A DNA stretch of 64,000 nucleotides, from sequence record NC_028847.1. The stretch is one strand, 5' to 3'. A program made the position numbers and the translations under genes. Within the stretch, counting starts at the first letter, position 1. Every line of letters begins with the position of its first letter. Under the pieces are notes generated by a model. The model made no database searches and was not told where the DNA came from. It was given only the letters and a program-made list of their open reading frames with translations. The stretch is from Escherichia phage QL01. Shown here piece after piece: positions 23,041-33,776 of this stretch.

Positions 23041-24129
23041 ATGAAAGTAAAAGAACTTGACTTTGATGTAGCCTCCTTGTTTAAAGGAGGTTCAAAGACC
23101 TCCGCAGGTCAATCTAAAACACCAGCAATAAAAACCACGGTAACCGCTCAGTATCCAGCTGAGCGTGCTTCAGGTAATGATACCTCAACCGATATGGTAT
23201 TAAACGACCTCTATAAAAACGGATTGCTTTTTACTGCATATAATTTTAGTTCTCGTGTATCTCCGGATTTGCGTAACGACCGTTCGAGTCAAATGACTAA
23301 AAAGTTCTCAAGTGCAGCCAACAAATTAACAGGCAATAGTGGAACATATAGTGCTGTTAAAAACTTATTTGGTGGAAATACTAAGGGCGTTAAATTTGAT
23401 ACCCAAGCCTTAGCTAATATCCTTTTACCTCGTTCTAAATCTGATGTGGATTCCGTATCACACAAATTTAATGATGTTGGTGAGTCCTTAATTACTAAAG
23501 GCGGTGGTACTGCTACAGGTATTTTAAGTAACGTTGCTAGTACCGCGGTATTTGGTGCATTAGAATCTGTGACTAACGGCGTAATGGCTGATTCAGGCGA
23601 ACAGATATACACTACAGCTCGTAGTATGTACGCCGGTCCGGATAACCGTACTAAGGTATTCACTTGGGAAATGACTCCACGAAATGCCCAAGACCTTATC
23701 CAGATTATTAAAATATACGAAATCTTCAACTATTATTCTTACGGCGAAACGGGTAATTCGGCTTTCGCAGGTGAATTAAAAGAGAAGATTGATACTTGGT
23801 ATCGTTCTACATTTAAAAAAGAAGCTATTGACAAGTTTGATGGTAAGCTATTAGGGGAAAGTATTACAAGCTTCCTTTCTAATGTTATTGTGGTAAGTAA
23901 CCCAACCATTTGGTATATCCGAAACTTTGGTGATAGCAGTTCATATGATGGTCGTGAAGATATTTTTGGCCCATGCCAAATCCAGAGTATCCGTTTTGAT
24001 AAAACTCCGGACGGCCATTTTAACGGATTGGCTATTGCTCCTAACTTACCATCTACGTTTAGTTTAGAAGTTACTTTCCGTGAAATTATTACTCTGAACC
24101 GTGGCTCACTTTATACGGAAGGATTCTAA
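23041..24129 (+). CDS. 48: baseplate tail tube cap gp48
   Basis: 362 aa, position and size match T4 gp48. Confidence 0.85.
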   Translation: MKVKELDFDVASLFKGGSKTSAGQSKTPAIKTTVTAQYPAERASGNDTSTDMVLNDLYKNGLLFTAYNFSSRVSPDLRNDRSSQMTKKFSSAANKLTGNSGTYSAVKNLFGGNTKGVKFDTQALANILLPRSKSDVDSVSHKFNDVGESLITKGGGTATGILSNVASTAVFGALESVTNGVMADSGEQIYTTARSMYAGPDNRTKVFTWEMTPRNAQDLIQIIKIYEIFNYYSYGETGNSAFAGELKEKIDTWYRSTFKKEAIDKFDGKLLGESITSFLSNVIVVSNPTIWYIRNFGDSSSYDGREDIFGPCQIQSIRFDKTPDGHFNGLAIAPNLPSTFSLEVTFREIITLNRGSLYTEGF

Positions 24130-25082
24130 TGTATACTTTACAAGAATTTCAGAATCAGGCAATTAATATTGACCTACAAAGGAATAACCTGTTTAGTGTG
24201 GTATTTGCCACAGTTCCTTCTTCTAAATCTCAGACGCTCCTCGACCAGTTCGGTGGAGCTTTATTTAACAATATCCCATTGAATAGCGATTTGTTTGGTA
24301 TTACACAAGGAGAGTTGACCCAAGGTGTTACGACATTAGTGACAGCGGGCACTCAGAAGTTGATTCGTAAGTCAGGCATAAGTAAATATTTGATTGGAGC
24401 TATGTCATCCAGGGTTGTGCAGAGCTTACTAGGAGAGTTTGAAGTAGGTACATATCTGATGGATTTTTTCAATATGGCCTATCCTACGGCAGGTCTTTTA
24501 GTCCACGCCGTTAAAATCCCGGATAATACTTTGAACTATGAAATGGATTTGAACCACAACTCACCTAACATCAAAATTACCGGAAGAGAATATTCTCCAT
24601 TAGTATTAAGCTTCCGTATGGATTCTGAAGCTGCTAACTACCGTGCTTTTAATGATTGGGTTAATAGTGTTCAAGACCCTATTACACAATTAAGAGCATT
24701 ACCCGAGGATGTTGAAGCCGACATTCAAGTCAACCTTCATTCTCGTAATGGATTACCCCATACAGTAGTAATGCTTAATGGTTGTGTTCCTGTTGGTGTT
24801 TCGTCACCGGAATTATCCTACGACGGTGATAACCAAATTGCTTCATTTGATGTTACATTTGCTTATAGAAGTGTACAGACGGGTGCAGTTGGTAAACAAG
24901 CTGCTTATGAGTGGTTGGAAGATAAGATTATTAAAGGCGTCGCTGGGCTAAGTGAGAGCAATTCGCTGAGTTCTTCAGTGGCCAAATTAAGTAGACTTTC
25001 AGGAGCTTCTAGTGGATTAACAGGATTGGTTAATACATTTGGTGGGCGTGCTATTAATAATGGAATATCGAGGCTGTTATAA
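24129..25082 (+). CDS. 54: baseplate tail tube initiator gp54
   Basis: 317 aa, position and size match T4 gp54. Confidence 0.85.
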   Translation: MYTLQEFQNQAINIDLQRNNLFSVVFATVPSSKSQTLLDQFGGALFNNIPLNSDLFGITQGELTQGVTTLVTAGTQKLIRKSGISKYLIGAMSSRVVQSLLGEFEVGTYLMDFFNMAYPTAGLLVHAVKIPDNTLNYEMDLNHNSPNIKITGREYSPLVLSFRMDSEAANYRAFNDWVNSVQDPITQLRALPEDVEADIQVNLHSRNGLPHTVVMLNGCVPVGVSSPELSYDGDNQIASFDVTFAYRSVQTGAVGKQAAYEWLEDKIIKGVAGLSESNSLSSSVAKLSRLSGASSGLTGLVNTFGGRAINNGISRLL

Positions 25083-25086
25083 CAAA

Positions 25087-25110
25087 AAAGGAGAGCATAT
25101 GCTCTCCTTT
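25087..25110. terminator. bidirectional hairpin terminator (AAAGGAGAGC-AUAU-GCUCUCCUUU) between gene 54 and minus-strand small gene
   Basis: Perfect 10-bp stem flanked by A-run and T-run. Confidence 0.7.
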
Positions 25111-25116
25111 AGGGGT

Positions 25117-25407
25117 TTATTTACGGAACGAAATGAAACCTGCTGCAGTCATTAATGGCTGCTTTTTAACAAAGACCGTGATAGAAATAGGAGCTTCAGA
25201 TTCGAGTTGTCCTGTCACTACACCGTTAAAAATGTTTTCGGTTTGTTCTGGATAAGAAAAATTCTCAACAGGTCGGATATCAAACTGTTTGTCTTCACCG
25301 AAAACTCGACGTAATTCATTACCTACGGCACTGTCAAACTCTTCGGAAGCAGGGATAACGTTTTCAACTACCAGTTCTTGACCATTAAAACGGAATGCAG
25401 ATTTCAT
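25117..25407 (-). CDS. hypothetical protein (alt.-x position, early promoter)
   Basis: 96 aa ORF with GAGGAG SD; GTTTAC-N18-TACTAT promoter immediately upstream overlapping alt stop. Confidence 0.6.
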   Translation of the reverse strand: MKSAFRFNGQELVVENVIPASEEFDSAVGNELRRVFGEDKQFDIRPVENFSYPEQTENIFNGVVTGQLESEAPISITVFVKKQPLMTAAGFISFRK

Positions 25408-25435: not shown

Positions 25436-25465
25436 ATAGTACCACATCCTTGTGGTGTTGTAAAC
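25436..25465 (-). promoter_or_regulatory. early promoter GTTTAC-N18-TACTAT overlapping alt paralog 1 stop
   Basis: Motif on minus strand upstream of 25117..25407 ORF. Confidence 0.5.
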
Positions 25466-27588
25466 TACATTTTGAATTTATTTGATAAAGAAGAGATATC
25501 CAAAGACGCGGCAAGGATTTCCATAGCTTCGTTGCTTTCAGAAACGGATTCATTAACCAAGAATTGACTAAATCCATCCATCAGGCGAACTTCACCAGTT
25601 TCCATCAAATGGTCACCATCGTAAACAGATTCGCTGAGCTCTGAAGGAGGCGTTACGGTAGCTTCCATAAGGTATTTGTGAGATACTCTATCATTCATGG
25701 CAAAAGCCGCTACTTTATCAACCTTCAACAATAATCCACGCGGAAGGATAATTTCTGCTTCTTCGGCATATTCTGTAAGGTCACCAGGAGCGATAACTTT
25801 AACTGCTTCAGCACCTCGAATAACCATACCAATTTCAGCAATTCTATCTGCAGGACCTTCAGGTGCAATTGGATTACCAAACTCGTCTTCTTCCCATTCT
25901 ACCTCTTCGTCATCGACTTCACCCACATCAGATGAACTACCACTAGCCAATTTAAACAACTCATCAGCGGAGGACAAAGAACCTTCACCACCAACAAAAA
26001 CGGCTTGGTTGTCGAGGGCCATATAATTTTTACCGAATTCACCAAAGATGTTAGGCTTTAATGAGGCTGACACAAAGTTCTTAAAGTAAAATGTTTTGTT
26101 ATCGATATTATGGCGCAGAATTTTGTATGGCAAATCCTGACCACGATACAAAATAGTACCCTTAGGAAGTTTAATACCCTTAGTAAATGCTGAGTCTAAA
26201 TCCTTAATCAATTTAATAGCCGTTGTATTGTTTTCGGATTCAGGTTTACCTAAAAGGAATAAGTTCATAGGAGCATATTCAGCCGCGCAATATTCAATAA
26301 TAGCATTGCTTTCGTCTTTGGTTAGGTCCTTAGGTTTAATGAGCTCGCCTGAATAAGCATATGCATCACTAATAGAATCGTTAACCAGTTTATAAACGGC
26401 TTCCATAGCGAAAGCAATTCTAGATGCTTTCTCTGAAGGGGAACCCTTAAAACGGGTACTCAGGTTATTAACAATTTTCTTAATAATATCCAGACTATTG
26501 GTTGTATTGATTTGCGAAAGGCCACTTAAAAGTCTATCGACTTCTGTATTAAAAAATGCCATATTATTAGAGTAAATTTCAAACCCTTGTTTATCTCTAT
26601 TAGCATAATTTAGTTTAAATTTACTATCAGTCATTAAAGCGTGTGTGAGAGCAATAGTGTATCTAAAGTTGGCAAGGTCCTCGCTCTTAGATTTAAACTG
26701 AGAAGCCTGACGCATTTTAGTAATGGCACCTTTTTTAAAGTTCTGACTAATCTGTTCAATACCTTCGTTCTCAGGGCCTTCAGCCGTGTGAACCGGTACA
26801 GAAGCTTCAAACTCGTTATAAACCTGCAATTCTTTAGGGGACAAAGTTTCAGGCTCAGCAGTAGAATACTGCGCGGCCGCAGCCATACGACGCGAAATCT
26901 TAGTACGAGAGATAACGGCCTTATCAGTACGTTTCTCTTCAACTTGTGCAATAGATGCCGCTACGGCTTCTACTTTACTTACGGCCTGGCCTGTTTTCTT
27001 AGAAACATACACTTCGCCAACTTTAGACTCAACTTTAGTATAAAGATCGGCATTAATTTCAGGCATACCCTTGATATCTTCAATATTAGCACCGCGACGT
27101 ACTAAAAGAACGTAGGTATGTTTTCCGCTGAATTGGAACATGTCGTCAACAACTTTAAACTTACCACCGGTACGAGCCATAGCCAAACGAGCTAATACGC
27201 GCTGAACGGTAGGACCTTTACCTTTCATTTTCTTAGTAGGGAAACGGAATAAAACCGCGTCCATTTTAAGTTTGATTATTTGTTCATATATGGTATCGAA
27301 AATGGTGTTCAGTGTACCGAGTGGATCGGTACCCAAACCACCCTTGAGTTCTGCCGGAGCGCCTTTAGCAGATAAACTCATTAAGATAACATGGACGTAC
27401 TTATCGCCATTTTTAACCATCTTAATAGCGTCGCCTTCGGACGCATAAGATACCATACGTGCTACTAAATTGTCATTACCAGGAGCATGTACCGCAAAAA
27501 TCTGCGGTACGCCTGAGCCAGGTTTAAGATTTGTTACCGGATAGTTTTTAGCGGAATCGCTATCAAAAACTTCGTTTAAATTTTCCAT
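25465..27588 (-). CDS. Alt-like ADP-ribosyltransferase paralog 1 (most divergent copy)
   Basis: 707 aa; first ~200 aa nearly identical to paralog 2 and collinear with T4 Alt; C-terminal ART region with YRGQ, FVSASL (variant of STS) and EAEIILPRG; acidic insertion. Confidence 0.85.
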   Translation of the reverse strand: MENLNEVFDSDSAKNYPVTNLKPGSGVPQIFAVHAPGNDNLVARMVSYASEGDAIKMVKNGDKYVHVILMSLSAKGAPAELKGGLGTDPLGTLNTIFDTIYEQIIKLKMDAVLFRFPTKKMKGKGPTVQRVLARLAMARTGGKFKVVDDMFQFSGKHTYVLLVRRGANIEDIKGMPEINADLYTKVESKVGEVYVSKKTGQAVSKVEAVAASIAQVEEKRTDKAVISRTKISRRMAAAAQYSTAEPETLSPKELQVYNEFEASVPVHTAEGPENEGIEQISQNFKKGAITKMRQASQFKSKSEDLANFRYTIALTHALMTDSKFKLNYANRDKQGFEIYSNNMAFFNTEVDRLLSGLSQINTTNSLDIIKKIVNNLSTRFKGSPSEKASRIAFAMEAVYKLVNDSISDAYAYSGELIKPKDLTKDESNAIIEYCAAEYAPMNLFLLGKPESENNTTAIKLIKDLDSAFTKGIKLPKGTILYRGQDLPYKILRHNIDNKTFYFKNFVSASLKPNIFGEFGKNYMALDNQAVFVGGEGSLSSADELFKLASGSSSDVGEVDDEEVEWEEDEFGNPIAPEGPADRIAEIGMVIRGAEAVKVIAPGDLTEYAEEAEIILPRGLLLKVDKVAAFAMNDRVSHKYLMEATVTPPSELSESVYDGDHLMETGEVRLMDGFSQFLVNESVSESNEAMEILAASLDISSLSNKFKM

Positions 27589-27591
27589 TAT

Positions 27592-29637
27592 TTACCCTTG
27601 GATGAATTTTTCTGGCGTTTCGTCAAAATTAATACATGAAGCTAAAATAGGCATTATATCCACCTTGGTCGATTTGACGAATGAATCAAAAGACACAGGG
27701 TTGTCGGTCTCTGTTTCTACGCCTTGGTAAACAACCAATTCGCCGGTTTCCATCAATGCATCACCATCATAGATAACCGCATTTTCTGCTAGTTGGTCTG
27801 TGGTCTGGATATCAGCTTCCAATAATTTGGTGTTGTAGTTTCCTTTATATGAGGCATCTGTAATTTTAGTAATCTTAACAGTAGTTCCACGTGGAAGAAT
27901 AACCTCTTGTTCTGTTGGAGAACCTGACAATTTACCTGGCACAATTACGTTAATAGAGTCTGCACCGGAAATTTTCCAACCGATGTTCATCATTGTATTT
28001 TCGGAACTCGTCAGCATACTTGGAAGAACAATTTCATTATCGCCTTGGAAAGATGTCCCAGCGCGATAGTCCTGATGAACTGCGGCCATTGCGACGTTTG
28101 ATACCCAGCCGCCAAAGATAATCGGCTTAAGGGACGTTGATACATAGTTCCTGAAATAAAACAATTTTGAGTGTTTGATTTTATCAAAAGTGTTAACATT
28201 TAAATATTGACCACGCCAAAGTGTAATATCAGGTGGCAATTTATGGCCAATTTCAAATGCTGCATCCATATCATTAATTACTTCAATTACACGATAACTA
28301 TCAATAAATTCTGCATCCTCTTCATAATAATTACCCAACAAATAATTATTAACATCGGTATAATATTGGCCACAATAAGAAGAAATAGCCTCACGCTGCT
28401 CATACTCAAATCGATTATCGCTATAACTGGCTGTAAAATGCATAACACTTTCTGACGCTTCATTAGCAAAGTCGGTAACAGCAGCACTTATACGTTGAGC
28501 ATACTCTTGTTCCCAAAGCTCTGCTGCATATTCTGCCGCATCCATATTAGGAGGAGCCTCATTCATTTTTCTTTCAATAAATGCAGCTTTGCGAAGGTTA
28601 AGAACCTCTGCACATGATTCGGCAAAAATCTGCATCTGCTTCATACTGCCGACAGGAGCACGTTTAAGTTCACGATGCATACGGTTAAAAATTGGGTCAG
28701 AGTCTTCGACTCGAATTTCTTCTTTCCAAACACCGTTTGCTCGCATAGCCATATCTGCCGCGCGCATACGCTCCATAGTATTCGTTTCAGAAGGTTGAAT
28801 AAAAATTTCTAGTTCTTCATAATCATCGATAAGTTCCGCTGTTGCTGGGGCACTAAATTTTGATGCCTCTGCATCAATCTCATTCCAACCTTCCGGAACT
28901 TCATCTCGAGGAGAATACTGGGCTGCGGCTACAGCACGCCTAGAAATCTTAGTAGTAGTAATAACGGCCTTATCCGTACGTTTTTCTTCGACTGCCGCTA
29001 TACTAGCAGATAGTGCTTCTATTTTGGTTACCGATTGGCCTGTTTTCTTGGATACATAAACCTCACCAACTTTAGACTCAACCTTAGTGTAAAGGTCTGC
29101 ATCAATTTCAGGCATACCTTTTATGTCCTCAATATTAGCTTGTTTACGGACCAGTAAAACGTATGTATGTTTGCCTGTAAATTGATACATATCATCGACA
29201 ACTTTAAACTTGCCGCCAGTACGAGCCATCGCCAAACGTGCCAATACACGTTGAACAGTAGGACCCTTACCTTTCATTTTCTTGGTAGGGAACCGGAAAA
29301 GAACTGCATCCATTTTAAGTTTGTTTACTTGTTCGTATACAGTATCAAAAATGGTATTCAGCGTACCAAGTGGGTCAGAACCTAACCCACCTTTCAACTC
29401 GGCTGGGCTACCCTTAGCAGACAAACTCATCAAAATAACATGAACATATTTGTCGCCCGGCTTAACCATTTTAATAGCGTCTCCTTGAGACGCATAAGAT
29501 ACCATACGAGCAACCAGATTATCATTACCTGGTGCTTGGATAGAGAAAATCTGTGGAATACCGGAACCCGGTTTAAGATTTGTTACTGGATAGTTTTTAG
29601 CGGAATCACTATCAAAAACCTCATTTAAATTTTCCAT
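27592..29637 (-). CDS. Alt-like ADP-ribosyltransferase paralog 2
   Basis: 681 aa; conserved N-terminal region, WRGQ, YVSTSL, EQEVILPRG motifs, C-terminus ...PEKFIQG as in T4 Alt. Confidence 0.88.
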   Translation of the reverse strand: MENLNEVFDSDSAKNYPVTNLKPGSGIPQIFSIQAPGNDNLVARMVSYASQGDAIKMVKPGDKYVHVILMSLSAKGSPAELKGGLGSDPLGTLNTIFDTVYEQVNKLKMDAVLFRFPTKKMKGKGPTVQRVLARLAMARTGGKFKVVDDMYQFTGKHTYVLLVRKQANIEDIKGMPEIDADLYTKVESKVGEVYVSKKTGQSVTKIEALSASIAAVEEKRTDKAVITTTKISRRAVAAAQYSPRDEVPEGWNEIDAEASKFSAPATAELIDDYEELEIFIQPSETNTMERMRAADMAMRANGVWKEEIRVEDSDPIFNRMHRELKRAPVGSMKQMQIFAESCAEVLNLRKAAFIERKMNEAPPNMDAAEYAAELWEQEYAQRISAAVTDFANEASESVMHFTASYSDNRFEYEQREAISSYCGQYYTDVNNYLLGNYYEEDAEFIDSYRVIEVINDMDAAFEIGHKLPPDITLWRGQYLNVNTFDKIKHSKLFYFRNYVSTSLKPIIFGGWVSNVAMAAVHQDYRAGTSFQGDNEIVLPSMLTSSENTMMNIGWKISGADSINVIVPGKLSGSPTEQEVILPRGTTVKITKITDASYKGNYNTKLLEADIQTTDQLAENAVIYDGDALMETGELVVYQGVETETDNPVSFDSFVKSTKVDIMPILASCINFDETPEKFIQG

Positions 29638-29640
29638 TAT

Positions 29641-31725
29641 TTACCCTTGGATGAATTTTTCTGGGATGTCATAGAGGTCTATGCATGAAGCCAAAAGAGG
29701 CAGTACATCAAACCGTGTAGATTTAACAAATGAATCAAAAGATAAGGGGCTTTCGGAAGTATCGAAGTCATCTTGATATACGACCAACTCGCCGGTTTCC
29801 ATTAGTACATCACCATCATATACCACAGATTCTTGAAGCTCATCTGTTGTCATAACTTCAGCTTGAATGAGTTTTGTATTACTAGATGTTGTTCCATCAT
29901 TATTAGAAGCATCTGTTATTTTATTAACTTTGACCATTAATCCACGCGGTAGAATAACTTCGGCTTCAGTTGCTATTCCGAGATTTCCTGGATATACGAC
30001 ATTAACTTTATGGGCCCCATCAATAGCCCATCCTATTTGAACTTTAACATAATCAGGATTTTCTTTATATGCTCTTATTTCATTAGGATTAATAGTTATT
30101 CCTTCTTCATTTTTATCGACTGTCAATTCATTGCGAACTTCAGGTTCTAAAAGACCGATACCAGCGTGCGTAACACCAAAACGTCCGAAAATTATAGGGG
30201 TCAATGAAGTGGATACAAAATTTCTAAAATAAAACACTTTATTTTTAACTAGTGCTTCGTATATAGGAGCAGTCATACTCTGGGCACGATAAACTGTGAT
30301 GCCCTCTGGTATACGGTCGCCATTTTCAAAAGCAGAATCCAAATTATTAACTGCAGATTCGATATCTTTTTCGCTCATAACCTCATAGTTCTGAGGATTA
30401 TAACGTCCTAAAAGAAGATTATTTATGTCTGTATATCCTGAACCACAATATTCTCTGATACCACGCTTTTGTGATGGAGTATATTTAGAACCCTCACGAG
30501 CAATAGTAATATCGACCATAATACCGCCACCTACACCAGCAAAACTATACACGCGTTTTTTAATGAACTTGGTCTTGGCCGCTTTCCACTTGGCCTCTGT
30601 CAATTCGTTCCAAAGGTCATCAGGTTGGCCTTTACGGGTTCTGTTATGAATAGCCAGCCACTCGCCTTTGTATTCTTCGAAAATGGTATTAATAGTAGAG
30701 GCATATTTTTCTAGGGCTTTAACAGATGTCAAAGGTTCGTTTTTGATGGCCGTAAGGATTTTCTCTTTAATTTTCTCTTGGATTTCGCCAATACCGTGAA
30801 GTGGGAACAATTTGTAATCGTAATGCAATTCTTCAGCAGTGCCTTCAGCCACTATATTAGCAACCTTATTTTTAGCCGCAGGAGAATTGTTATTAGTAAC
30901 CATTTCCTGAGCCTCAGGGATTAATGGAACTGTTGCCGGTTTATTAAAATCTACTGCAGTAGCTTCATATTTCTTAAACAGCTCACTTTCATTACGATAA
31001 GATTCTAACGATTGACTTGCTGCAATGGCACGTCGAGAAATCTTAGTCTTGGTTATAACCATTTTATCAGTGCGACGTTCTTCAACCTTAGCAATACTAC
31101 CGGCAATAGCAGTTTCTTTAGTAACCTGCATGCCTTCTTTTTTGGAAATATAAACTTCGCCGACATCAGAATCTACCTTAGTATACAATTCAGCATTAAT
31201 TCCAGGCATACCTTTGATATCTTCTATATCAGCTTGTTTACGAACTACCAGGATGTAAGTATGTTTACCGGTAAATTGGTACATAGCCGGAACTACTTTA
31301 AAACGTCCACCTGTTTTCTGTGCTACCAAACGTTGGATAATCCGTTGAACGATAGGGCCTTGACCTTTCATTTTCTTAGTAGGGAAACGGAACATCACGG
31401 CATCCATACGAAGCTTTTTAACTTGGTCATAAACCACATCAAAAATAGTATTAATCGCATCTACGGGAGTAGGGCCTAGGCCACCTTTAAGTTCGGCAGG
31501 CGAACCTTTAGCTGAAAGGCTCATAAGGATAACGTGGGCATATTTATCACCCATCTTAACCTGTTTAATAGCATCACCTTCAGAAGCGTAGGATACCATA
31601 CGCGCCACTAATTGGGATTCTGCGTCACCAATCTTCCAAATCTGGGGTACTTTAAGTTTTGGGTTCAAGTTTACTGTAGGCAGTGTGCCTTCGGACTCAA
31701 ACACTTCATTTAATTGTTCGGTCAT
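29641..31725 (-). CDS. alt: Alt ADP-ribosyltransferase (closest to T4 Alt)
   Basis: 694 aa; long blocks matching T4 Alt (KISRRAIA.SQSLES, PSQKRGIREY.GSGY.DINN.LLG, VFYFRNFVSTSL, EVILPRGLMVKVNKITDAS, ...KFIQG). Confidence 0.95.
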   Translation of the reverse strand: MTEQLNEVFESEGTLPTVNLNPKLKVPQIWKIGDAESQLVARMVSYASEGDAIKQVKMGDKYAHVILMSLSAKGSPAELKGGLGPTPVDAINTIFDVVYDQVKKLRMDAVMFRFPTKKMKGQGPIVQRIIQRLVAQKTGGRFKVVPAMYQFTGKHTYILVVRKQADIEDIKGMPGINAELYTKVDSDVGEVYISKKEGMQVTKETAIAGSIAKVEERRTDKMVITKTKISRRAIAASQSLESYRNESELFKKYEATAVDFNKPATVPLIPEAQEMVTNNNSPAAKNKVANIVAEGTAEELHYDYKLFPLHGIGEIQEKIKEKILTAIKNEPLTSVKALEKYASTINTIFEEYKGEWLAIHNRTRKGQPDDLWNELTEAKWKAAKTKFIKKRVYSFAGVGGGIMVDITIAREGSKYTPSQKRGIREYCGSGYTDINNLLLGRYNPQNYEVMSEKDIESAVNNLDSAFENGDRIPEGITVYRAQSMTAPIYEALVKNKVFYFRNFVSTSLTPIIFGRFGVTHAGIGLLEPEVRNELTVDKNEEGITINPNEIRAYKENPDYVKVQIGWAIDGAHKVNVVYPGNLGIATEAEVILPRGLMVKVNKITDASNNDGTTSSNTKLIQAEVMTTDELQESVVYDGDVLMETGELVVYQDDFDTSESPLSFDSFVKSTRFDVLPLLASCIDLYDIPEKFIQG

Positions 31726-31748
31726 AATAATTCCTCTTTAATAACCTT

Positions 31749-31756
31749 ATTTATGC
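31749..31756 (-). promoter_or_regulatory. late-promoter-like CATAAATA upstream of alt array
   Basis: 7/8 match to TATAAATA about 25 bp upstream of alt ATG; first base deviates. Confidence 0.35.
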
Positions 31757-31760
31757 CAGA

Positions 31761-31778
31761 AAAGGCCCGAAGGCCTTT
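31761..31778 (-). terminator. hairpin terminator (AAAGGCC-UUCG-GGCCUUU on minus strand) after 31780..32004 ORF
   Basis: 7-bp stem, UUCG loop, U-rich tail. Confidence 0.6.
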
Positions 31779-31779
31779 A

Positions 31780-32004
31780 TTAAAGTACTAACAGCGTACG
31801 GTACACTTCAAATTTAGGACCCTTTTCATAGCGGTCGAAATTATCTTTAAAATCAGCGAACGCGATTTCATTTTCAAATTCAAGGACAATTTGGGACACT
31901 GCAGTGGAGACATCCCCACCTTCTTTATATCCAATAACCACGGTTTCTAAATAAGCTTTCATATTATAGACCAGTTTGAGACCAATCACCGAATACATCT
32001 TCAA
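31780..32004 (-). CDS. hypothetical protein
   Basis: 74 aa ORF between ligase and alt, followed by hairpin terminator; start may be internal ATG. Confidence 0.45.
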   Translation of the reverse strand: MKMYSVIGLKLVYNMKAYLETVVIGYKEGGDVSTAVSQIVLEFENEIAFADFKDNFDRYEKGPKFEVYRTLLVL

Positions 32005-33487
32005 ATGTATCAGCTTCTGTTTTATCGAAACGCCAACCTTTAATAATTGGAAGGAAAATACCTACAGTATCGGTACGTCCTTTAGAATGAACCCAACCAT
32101 TACATTCACAGTCGGCAATACGGCCAATCAATTTACCTTCACGAGCTTGTTTCATAAGAAGTTCACGGTCTAAATCAGGCCGGTCTTCCAATGGAATCAA
32201 TACCTTTTTACCTGATTTATCTTTCTTATGGGTGGTATCTTTAAAGCCTGAACCACAGTCACTTGTAATTCGACGACAACGTGATACTAATTCAACACCA
32301 CCAAGTTTGTTAGGGTCCTTCGAGTGTTCATAATAACCTACTACTTCTAAAGCAATATCGATTACTTCTTTGAACTTGATAAGATTCTTAGAACGGCGGT
32401 TTTCCCAGTAGGAGTCCATGTTCTTAAGGATAATACCTTCCAGACCTTGGTCGACATATTTCTTATAAACGACTTTAGCTTCTTCAAGATTATTAACCCA
32501 CTGGTTTTCGATAGCTTCAACACGCGTTGTGCCATGCAATACGACATTATGAGCCACCATAAGTTCTAAGGCTGTAAAGCGTACATCATACTTATCACCT
32601 TTAATTTTGCCTTCAGAATACACGACATCCAGTGGGACATAATCCCATGCCTGTAATACCATACCAGCGGCTTCAGATGGGGTGATAGTTCCTTGAAGAG
32701 CCTTATTAGCCAATCCATTTGACGTAGAACGATCGGCGACAGTTTGGAATTCTTTGGCTTTACTTAATTCAGGAAGTTCCTCGTCAAACATACTAAACAA
32801 ATCATTAGATGCTTTAGGTTCAACTTTAGGAGTATGGTAAACTAATTCGCCATCAATCATAACGCCATTAGGATGACGTTGACGAGCTTCTTCGGTCATC
32901 GCCATTAATTCAGCAGCTAAAAGATGAAGCCCTTGGTATTCATTACCACCACGAGTAAGGAATGTCACACCATCGTTACGAACTTCGGCAAAACAACGAG
33001 CACCATCAGCTTTTAATTGAGCAAACGCTGGCCATTTAATATTTTTCTTAATCAAAGCTTCATCATAAGAACTCGCCAACATCTGCTGTTGTTCAGGGAT
33101 TAAACCTTTCCAAACCTTGTTAGCAATAGAAATCGATGCACCACATTCAAGGTCGCGCATCATTACACGACGTAATACCTCGGCATCCGGGGCCTTAGCA
33201 TCAGCAATGATTTGAGCCAGTTCTTCAATAGCCGCATTACCCGTAATCTTACGTGTGGCTAATGTGAATTCAGCGAAATCAAGAAGGTCCTCAAGAGTAA
33301 TCATACCAAAGGATTGAGATGTAAATCCAGGTTCTGGCCACTTTTTAATACCGTAGTTCAGACGACGGGTATAAGCCATACGATAAACACGTTTCAGAAG
33401 CTCATTGTCCTTTTCACGAGCAATAATGGCTTCTTTAGCTTTAGTAGAATCAATAGCAGCAATTTCGTTTAAAATATCTAAAATCAT
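31964..33487 (-). CDS. 30: DNA ligase gp30 (ATP-dependent)
   Basis: Strong identity to T4 DNA ligase (RKITGNAAIEEL, RVMMRDLECGAS.SIANKVW.GLIPEQ, AQLKADGARCFAEVR, EGIILKN, CECNGW); start moved to ATG MILDILNEIA with GAGGTGA SD. Confidence 0.96.
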   Translation of the reverse strand: MILDILNEIAAIDSTKAKEAIIAREKDNELLKRVYRMAYTRRLNYGIKKWPEPGFTSQSFGMITLEDLLDFAEFTLATRKITGNAAIEELAQIIADAKAPDAEVLRRVMMRDLECGASISIANKVWKGLIPEQQQMLASSYDEALIKKNIKWPAFAQLKADGARCFAEVRNDGVTFLTRGGNEYQGLHLLAAELMAMTEEARQRHPNGVMIDGELVYHTPKVEPKASNDLFSMFDEELPELSKAKEFQTVADRSTSNGLANKALQGTITPSEAAGMVLQAWDYVPLDVVYSEGKIKGDKYDVRFTALELMVAHNVVLHGTTRVEAIENQWVNNLEEAKVVYKKYVDQGLEGIILKNMDSYWENRRSKNLIKFKEVIDIALEVVGYYEHSKDPNKLGGVELVSRCRRITSDCGSGFKDTTHKKDKSGKKVLIPLEDRPDLDRELLMKQAREGKLIGRIADCECNGWVHSKGRTDTVGIFLPIIKGWRFDKTEADTFEDVFGDWSQTGL

Positions 33488-33497
33488 AATCACCTCA

Positions 33498-33776
33498 TTA
33501 GTCATGGATTCTATTATAAGCCACATCAGCCAAAAGCAAGTCTAATCGCTTATGATAAGAGAACACAAATCTCATTCGCCCATCAGATTTGAACTTGGAC
33601 ATAAAGTGGACATAAATGAATCCCTGTTCGACGCATTCGCGCCAAACAGGATGGTCTTTAGCCGGATTTACATCAAATGAGTAATCATGATTCACATGAC
33701 GAATAAACTGGTTTACATGACCATAATCCATTGTAGTGGTAGGACCATAGTCTGAAATTGTATGAACTACAAACAT
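33498..33776 (-). CDS. hypothetical protein (30.1 position)
   Basis: ORF with GAGG SD before internal ATG (MFVVHT...). Confidence 0.5.
   Translation of the reverse strand: MFVVHTISDYGPTTTMDYGHVNQFIRHVNHDYSFDVNPAKDHPVWRECVEQGFIYVHFMSKFKSDGRMRFVFSYHKRLDLLLADVAYNRIHD

Follow-up and report, generated by a model that had tools for sequence, protein, structure and literature searches.

Conserved catalytic residues and a long acidic loop in an AltB-lineage Alt-like ADP-ribosyltransferase of Escherichia phage QL01, a Dhakavirus

A 64,000-nucleotide stretch of Escherichia phage QL01 (NC_028847.1; hereafter the window) carries three full-length alt genes head to tail on the minus strand, and the last of them, here copy 1, raises the question of whether it still encodes a working Alt ADP-ribosyltransferase (ART) or a degenerate relative of one. 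The source phage is a T4-type myovirus and belongs to the JS98/IME08 group of the genus Dhakavirus. An original prediction, made from the sequence, held that copy 1 has altered catalytic-region motifs, an acidic insertion and an unusual C-terminus, as possible signs of a shift in substrate specificity, of weakened activity or of a role without catalysis. We conclude, with a probability of roughly 0.7, that copy 1 is functional and belongs to an old, separate lineage of Alt paralogs ("AltB"), that is, an active, injected, arginine-specific ART whose target-recognition surface has diverged. The three genes, with 3 nucleotides between neighbours, are:

25465..27588, minus strand: copy 1, AltB-lineage Alt-like ADP-ribosyltransferase of 707 residues, last of the three tandem alt genes (open reading frame list, Pfam, PHROG).
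27592..29637, minus strand: copy 2, Alt paralog of 681 residues, present in some Dhakaviruses only (open reading frame list, PF03496).
29641..31725, minus strand: copy 3, Alt paralog of 694 residues, the most T4-Alt-like, first in the operon and adjoining alt.1 and the ligase gene (PF03496, E 3.6e-36).

All three copies match PF03496 (copy 1 with E 2.7e-17) and, over their full length, phrog_802, "Alt-like RNA polymerase ADP-ribosyltransferase", against which residues 1-707 of copy 1 cover profile positions 2-674 of 674 (E 5.8e-249). Copy 1 therefore has a significant profile match, and it has an ART fold. At the DNA level its interval is 91-98% identical to "RNA polymerase ADP-ribosylase / Alt-like" genes in 41 phage records, the former label having been given by homology only. 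No Alt structure was found in the PDB or described in the literature searched. The AlphaFold2 (AF2) model used here was built on a 53-sequence full-length alignment and has a predicted local distance difference test score (pLDDT) of 80.9, against a mean of 60 for an earlier model from 13 sequences.

The catalytic Arg and Glu were mapped by HMMER alignments of copy 1, and of the Alt-family profile, to solved R-S-E ADP-ribosyltransferases, and conservation was counted in an alignment of 86 Alt-like proteins, comprising the three window copies, T4 Alt and protein-search matches, including those from an exhaustive profile search of 1.8 billion representatives. The elements so placed are:

26143..26145, minus strand: R482, catalytic Arg of region 1 (aromatic-Arg, Y481-R482 in LYRGQ), from the alignment to C3, CPILE-a and Certhrax.
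26059..26091, minus strand: region 2 block FYFKNFVSASL, residues 500-510, in which F505-V-S507-A508-S509 corresponds to [YF]-x-S-x-S (motif, family counts).
25735..25764, minus strand: E610-A-E612 in EEAEIILPRG, the region 3 catalytic motif after the ARTT loop (toxin alignment).

R482 aligns to the FRGDD or YRGDD of the C3 enzymes and to the YR of CPILE-a and Certhrax, and lies in strand 480-487 of the AF2 model, as region 1 should; E610-A-E612 aligns to the QYE or EYE, followed by LL.., of C3cer, CPILE-a and Certhrax, so that region 3 is also present. Region 2 has been defined as [YF]-x-S-T-[SQT] on a beta strand, with the PN loop immediately after it (PMC3000352). Copy 1 has this region in the S-x-S form and not as a strict S-T-S, the first and third Ser being kept and the middle residue being Ala, and F505-V-S507-A508-S509 is placed in strand 506-509, a strand in both AF2 models. 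A profile of the segment from the Arg to the PN loop (63 positions), run against PDB sequences, matched no ART, and its match to the pilin CofB ("FYFSNYVSS") was dismissed as chance; because of this, the mapping of the STS motif rests on the published pattern, the predicted strand and conservation in the family.

Across the family, R482, S507, E610 and E612 are invariant (86/86) and the position of S509 is Ser in 84 proteins and Thr in 2, whereas the two residues flagged in copy 1 stand at positions that vary. FYFKNFVSASL is indeed present, although the block to which it had been compared, FYFRNFVSTSL, is not common to the other copies, since copy 2 reads FYFRNYVSTSL. The position of K503 is occupied by R in 43 proteins, K in 21, A in 7, P in 6, S in 4, Q and N in 2 each and H in 1; that of A508 by T in 72, C in 9, A in 4 and S in 1 (A or C in 13/86). 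K503 lies four residues before the motif Ser S507 and two before the motif aromatic F505, and is not the "R" of R-S-E, because the catalytic Arg is R482 in LYRGQ; it reads as a conservative change at a variable site. The R-to-K change, like the C-terminus, thus falls outside the catalytic core in the alignment to R-S-E enzymes, and the T-to-A change falls inside S-T-S, at its most tolerant position. In iota toxin Ia, the activity left is about 5% in S338A, 20% in T339A and 25% in S340A (PMC3000352), and the last two effects have been reviewed as significant but not severe (PMC3202787). A508 is accordingly a tolerated variant that could at most lower the rate.

The equivalents in T4 Alt of R482, K503, S507-A508-S509 and E610/E612 are R478, R499, S503-T504-S505 and E574/E576. 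The mutation "E577A" abolishes catalysis by T4 Alt (PMC11404850), and this residue is most likely the second Glu of E-x-E, with a numbering offset of one. As far as alignment can tell, then, copy 1 keeps the whole catalytic apparatus, and its specificity for Arg would follow from the E-x-E motif and from analogy with T4 Alt. The reading of altered catalytic motifs therefore fails, and a non-catalytic role finds no support, the triad being intact, although a somewhat lower activity from the T-to-A change is possible. Changed specificity is the most plausible of the three options, not on the basis of the motif changes but through the acidic loop and a divergent helical region, both described below.

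The features of copy 1 are also not its own, contrary to what had been proposed. In 42 Dhakavirus records, among them JS98, JS10 and IME08 with the gene name altb, identity over residues 490-620 is at least 98.5%; the "altb" annotation occurs in more than 40 genomes; and K503 and the ...KFKM end recur in the second Alt that Tequatroviruses like SHBML-50-1 carry, at 54-59% identity. K503 and KFKM are thus lineage markers held in common with the second Alt of some Tequatroviruses. The lineage of copy 1 is already known and annotated, and its extreme acidic loop is its only distinctive feature. Orthologs were taken from GenBank phage records (IMG/VR gave only 11 loci), and each Dhakavirus locus obtained has one as its last alt gene, whereas the alt genes upstream vary in number and type: there are two alt genes in IME08, UP19, CLB_P2 and vB_EcoM_005, and three in KIT01, AnYang, WG01 and the window, the WG01 set being of partly different types. 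Copy 2 is present in KIT01 and AnYang and absent from IME08, UP19 and CLB_P2.

Purifying selection acts on this lineage. Among 10 distinct full-length orthologs, R482, S507, S509, E610 and E612 are identical, and the ratio of nonsynonymous to synonymous divergence (dN/dS) is 0.06 for the whole gene and 0.027 for the ART core, the lowest of the protein. The lineage-specific features of copy 1 are orthologous differences under selection, not chance.

The tandem alt loci of Dhakaviruses hold other Alt types too, and copy number (2-3) and type differ between close relatives. Further Alt "cassettes" were seen at L017:1012-2907 (WG01), L003:2725-4809 and L016:861-2948, one type carrying FYFRNYVSTSL and NEKEIILPRG; a 631-residue type in WG01 carries MYLPIFASTSL and TETEVILPRG and lacks the whole YDGD...KF C-terminal propeptide. 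In the exhaustive search, the giant proteins P0026, P0063, P0073, P0077, P0089 and P0092 (1,700-4,300 residues) each showed 7-13 separate stretches matching the Alt-type ART profile, and could be polyvalent or repeat proteins that contain numerous ART-like modules.

The small T4 genes alt.-1 and alt.-2 are annotated as having arisen by an old duplication of the beginning of alt (PMC1524935). Their products (L002:5066-5451) match residues 1-56 and 62-116, respectively, of the second Alt of SHBML-50-1 (L004:4822-6879) at 95% and 98% identity, and T4 Alt itself at only 56-62%; we therefore reject a duplication of the present T4 alt. T4 has lost most of the AltB lineage, of which alt.-1 and alt.-2 are the stubs left. 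Two paralogous Alt-like proteins have been reported in a Tequatrovirus (6phi13), with speculation on functional divergence, in a 2026 paper (PMC13600099). The literature yielded no experimental work on paralogous Alt-like proteins of Tequatroviruses, and the literature searched held neither feature descriptions of JS98-type altb nor proteomics of Dhakavirus altb products.

The feature that does set copy 1 apart is the acidic insertion, which sits between the conserved P-x-I-F-G segment (the PN-loop position) and strand 583-591, from which the chain continues into the ARTT loop and E-x-E:

25843..26055, minus strand: PN-loop region and lineage-specific acidic insertion, residues 512-582 (loop counts, AF2, dN/dS).
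25870-25929, minus strand: acidic run DVGEVDDEEVEWEEDEFGNP, residues 554-573 (sequence).

The acidic stretch is present before the E.E motif as predicted, with DVGEVDDEEVEWEEDEFGNP ending 36 residues upstream of E-x-E, and in the alignment copy 1 has about 30 residues more than copies 2 and 3 between the S-x-S strand and the core strand that comes next. Measured from S509 to G587, the loop has 77 residues and a net charge of -15, the longest and most acidic among the 86 proteins (median 45 residues, -4), and the net charge of the ART domain is -17 in copy 1, -8/-9 in copies 2 and 3 and -4 in T4 Alt. The Alt-like protein of Citrobacter phage CF1 (P0008) has a 69-residue loop with a charge of -10 and unrelated sequence. 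Residues 518-577 have a pLDDT below 60 in both AF2 models, consistent with a flexible loop. Codons 536-585 show no nonsynonymous difference among the 10 orthologs, at a dS of 0.22 (dN/dS 0).

The alternative that survives best, though we regard it as unlikely, is that the insertion is a neutral, disordered expansion of a variable loop and that copy 1 is redundant, modifying the same targets as other Alts (RNA polymerase alpha and others). The loop does vary across the family in sequence and in length (up to 69 residues in other lineages), AF2 confidence is low throughout it, and the sister lineage in Tequatroviruses has a loop 24 residues shorter, without the EVEWEEDEFGNP... segment. Neutral drift, however, sits poorly with 50 codons that show no amino acid change at that dS and with at least 98.5% identity in 42 genomes, and a net charge of -15 is a family outlier; simple redundancy is likewise at odds with the presence of copy 1 orthologs at all the Dhakavirus loci obtained, the middle copy being present at some and absent from others. 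We prefer different targets as the meaning of the loop, because the PN and ARTT loops are the target-contact elements in related toxins: the PN loop, which follows the STS motif, touches the target, and an effect on targeting has been proposed for the insertions that TccC5, Vis and EFV toxin have in this loop (PMC3000352).

The rest of copy 1 shows the same division between a conserved and a diverged part:

26869..27570, minus strand: conserved N-terminal alpha/beta domain, residues 7-240, common to all three paralogs (identity, AF2).

This domain has 89% amino acid identity to copy 2 and 67% to copy 3, whereas the remainder of copy 1 is 25-41% identical to the other two copies and its helical middle region (residues 241-420) about 25%. 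Its pLDDT is mostly 84-93, and by analogy with T4 Alt it presumably serves in association with the head core. Recent gene conversion was rejected as the main cause of the 89% identity between copies 1 and 2, because the nucleotide identity of those N-terminal domains is only 71-83%. Along the copy 1 orthologs, dS is 0.52 in the N-terminal 240 codons (26869-27588) and, within the remainder (25465-26868), 0.56 in the C-terminal tail and 0.16-0.22 in the middle and ART regions, about 3-fold higher at the ends, which suggests a mosaic history or recombination at conserved ends common with the paralogs.

Several observations weigh against copy 1 being an active enzyme with altered targets. T4 alt is non-essential. 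The insert is as constrained as the catalytic core and nothing beyond: it is not significantly more conserved than the C-terminal half, with 0 variable sites against about 2 expected (residues 241-650). AF2 confidence in the loop is low, and its placement relative to the NAD cleft follows from topology, not from a modelled contact. The ortholog in vB_EcoM_005 (L003:4813-6837, the same as L008:3813-5837) has an in-frame deletion of 99 nucleotides (33 residues; DLTEYA|EATV) that removes EEAEIILPRG...YLM, that is, E-x-E and the two following strands, with GAAGC microhomology at its flanks. The 155-kb record may contain an assembly error here, or the deletion may be a natural catalytic knock-out; should the deletion be genuine, that isolate can do without catalysis by this paralog, because E-x-E is gone. 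A508, lastly, replaces a Thr whose Ala mutant in iota Ia drops to about 20% activity (PMC3000352), and the activity of copy 1 may be below that of T4 Alt.

Some of these points would also fit the rival that stands next, and which we consider improbable: that copy 1 has little or no enzymatic activity left and is retained chiefly as a structural part of the prohead core, S-A-S and the bulky acidic loop crippling NAD binding or catalysis. Besides the iota Ia mutant and the vB_EcoM_005 ortholog, a sequenced isolate despite its lack of E-x-E, it could draw on the description of Alt as both an enzyme and a protein of the head core (PMC11404850) and on the Pfam score of copy 1, which is below those of copies 2 and 3 and split in two stretches. 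A dead enzyme, however, would not be expected to keep all its catalytic residues in 10 orthologs and at least 98.5% identity over residues 490-620 in 42 records, the single deletion isolate being the only exception, and a purely structural role would not need the lowest dN/dS of the protein in its ART core; moreover, S-A-S and S-C-S occur in other Alt-like proteins with a full triad.

Copy 1 ends in ...SNKFKM (nucleotides 25468-25485), which was correctly read as differing from ...PEKFIQG in copies 2 and 3; T4 Alt, said to end in the same way, in fact ends ...PYKFVQG. The family consensus at this end is [KR]-F-x(1-3), as in KFIQG, KFII, KFK, RFID and KFKM, and KFKM is an ordinary variant of it. 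Both ends of the protein are expected to be trimmed by gp21:

27571..27588, minus strand: predicted N-terminal propeptide MENLNE with a gp21-type L-x-E site (LNE-6), which aligns with T4 ITE-6; cleavage is predicted by analogy.
25630..25638, minus strand: L651-S-E653, predicted gp21 site at the C-terminal end of the mature enzyme; E653 aligns with T4 E619.
25468..25629, minus strand: predicted C-terminal propeptide, residues 654-707, with near-invariant YDGDxLMETGE and ...KFKM (alignment, AF2).

In T4 heads, mass spectrometry has shown that gp21 removes 6 N-terminal (ITE-6) and 63 C-terminal residues (LTE-619) of Alt, leaving a mature protein of 68.2 kDa (PMC5694885; reviewed in PMC9026906). 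The T4 Alt sequence cut at these two sites gives the published 68.2 kDa, a match that validates the numbering. Copy 1 has [LI]-x-E at both ends, and cleavage there is predicted. Among 53 full-length Alt-like proteins, the N-terminal site has L/I at position 4 in 45 and E6 in 48, and the C-terminal site has L/I in 47 and E653 in 51; in the YDGDxLMETGE motif of the same proteins, D657 is found in 52, G658 in all 53 and G665 in 51. Because the 54 C-terminal residues align with the T4 Alt propeptide, the odd KFKM end is probably absent from the mature enzyme. In the AF2 model a low-confidence linker (654-683) precedes a confident helix and tail (686-707, pLDDT about 86) packed against the protein body. 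The propeptide may serve in targeting, tethering or inhibition. That the acidic loop or this docked propeptide is an internal regulator (pseudo-substrate or nucleic-acid mimic), keeping the enzyme silent or soluble beside packaged DNA until maturation or injection, is very improbable: Ali et al. raised the question of Alt propeptides controlling activity (PMC5694885), the last 20 or so residues are modelled as packed on the body, and a poly-acidic loop does lie in a protein inside a DNA-filled head, but the idea is purely speculative and other Alt paralogs, presumably packaged alike, have no such loop.

We thus return to an active, injected AltB enzyme, for which the following course can be proposed. 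By analogy with T4 Alt, copy 1 would be made late and built into the prohead core, where gp21 would trim it at LNE-6 and LSE-653 to a predicted mature enzyme of about 71 kDa (residues 7-653) that would be injected along with the DNA. Once in the host, it would act as an arginine-specific mono-ADP-ribosyltransferase through R482, S507 and E610-x-E612. Copy 1 would differ from copies 2 and 3 and from T4 Alt in its target-choosing surfaces and not in its catalytic machinery; these surfaces are the helical middle (residues 241-420) and the 77-residue acidic, probably flexible loop, and the result may be a different, possibly basic, set of host protein targets. A more specific proposal, which we offer tentatively and think doubtful, is that the acidic loop beside the NAD cleft and the lineage-specific helical region retarget copy 1 to host proteins that T4 Alt does not modify, with basic nucleic-acid-binding, defence or toxin proteins as candidates, in analogy to the action on MazF reported for Alt.

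The practical value of this analysis is mostly corrective: copy 1 should not be listed among degenerate or non-catalytic Alts, because the flagged changes lie outside the catalytic triad. T4-type phages carry two to three Alt paralogs (sometimes of more types) in which the N-terminal module and processing sites are conserved and the middle and ART regions divergent. If retargeting is true, the tandem alt genes would be an effector array with a common packaging module and interchangeable "warheads"; and if the acidic loop sets target choice, the three paralogs of one phage would offer a compact system for studying how injected ADP-ribosyltransferases pick host targets.

The surroundings of the alt genes are those of the T4 locus. 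Gene order in the window is gp30, a small alt.1-like open reading frame, the three alt genes and an alt.-3 homolog, then gp54, gp48 and gp29 on the opposite strand, and the alt genes of T4 and IME08 likewise lie between gene 30/alt.1 and alt.-3/gene 54. The neighbouring features are:

31964-33526: DNA ligase gp30.
31748..31778, minus strand: hairpin and T-run (31761-31778), then CATAAATA (31748-31755), a near match to the T4 late-promoter box (read from sequence).
25117-25407: alt.-3 homolog, phrog_1739.
24129-25082: gp54.

Because only 3 nucleotides separate them, co-transcription of the alt genes is likely, and the CATAAATA variant box stands about 20 nucleotides upstream of the start of copy 3. 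No exact TATAAATA late-promoter box was found near the alt genes, where this variant upstream of copy 3 was the only candidate, and scans of the alt region with sigma-70 and terminator consensus gave no enrichment over shuffles. Directly after the copy 1 stop (25436-25464, minus strand), TTTACA and TACTAT are separated by 17 nucleotides and accompanied by an upstream TG; this site, in front of the alt.-3 homolog, looks like a T4 early promoter. A strong hairpin with a T-run (25087-25110) follows the alt.-3 homolog and faces the end of gp54.

Among known systems, T4 Alt (gpAlt, NP_049811, 682 residues) is present at about 40 copies per head and injected with the DNA; it ADP-ribosylates RNA polymerase alpha (Arg265) and other host proteins, and action on MazF has been reported. 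T4 Alt and copy 1 are collinear, with an N-terminal conserved domain, a helical middle and a C-terminal PF03496 ART domain, and agree in locus, in the R-S-E-x-E residues, in [LI]-x-E at both ends, in YDGDxLMETGE and in the K-F tail. They differ in that ART-domain identity is only about 35-37%, in R499 and T504 of T4 Alt being K and A in copy 1, in loop length (about 45 versus 77 residues), in the isoelectric point of the mature protein (8.4 versus 6.0), and in the C-terminal propeptide (63 versus 54 residues, ending KFVQG versus KFKM). Closer to copy 1 is the second Alt of Tequatroviruses (SHBML-50-1 YP_009288560; RB51, RB68, AR1, wV7), a sister lineage with 54-59% ART-domain identity that has the same position as last alt gene and the same FYFKNF..., GKP.S, IFGE.GKNYMALD, LxE-SVYDGDHLMETGEVR junction and ...KKFKM end; unlike copy 1, it has a canonical S-T-S and a 54-residue loop with a charge of -9, without the EVEWEEDEFGNP... 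/ EVEWEEDEFGNPIAPEGPADRIAE segment. The C3, VIP2, iota-Ia, Vis and Certhrax enzymes, R-S-E mono-ADP-ribosyltransferases of the cholera-toxin group, are only 13-25% identical to copy 1. In copy 1, unlike these toxins, about 420 phage-specific N-terminal residues and a C-terminal propeptide are fused to the ART domain, and none of the C3/VIP2 group has an insertion after the PN loop that comes near it in length; and whereas those toxins are secreted, copy 1, to judge from T4 Alt, would be delivered by packaging in the capsid and injection into the host.

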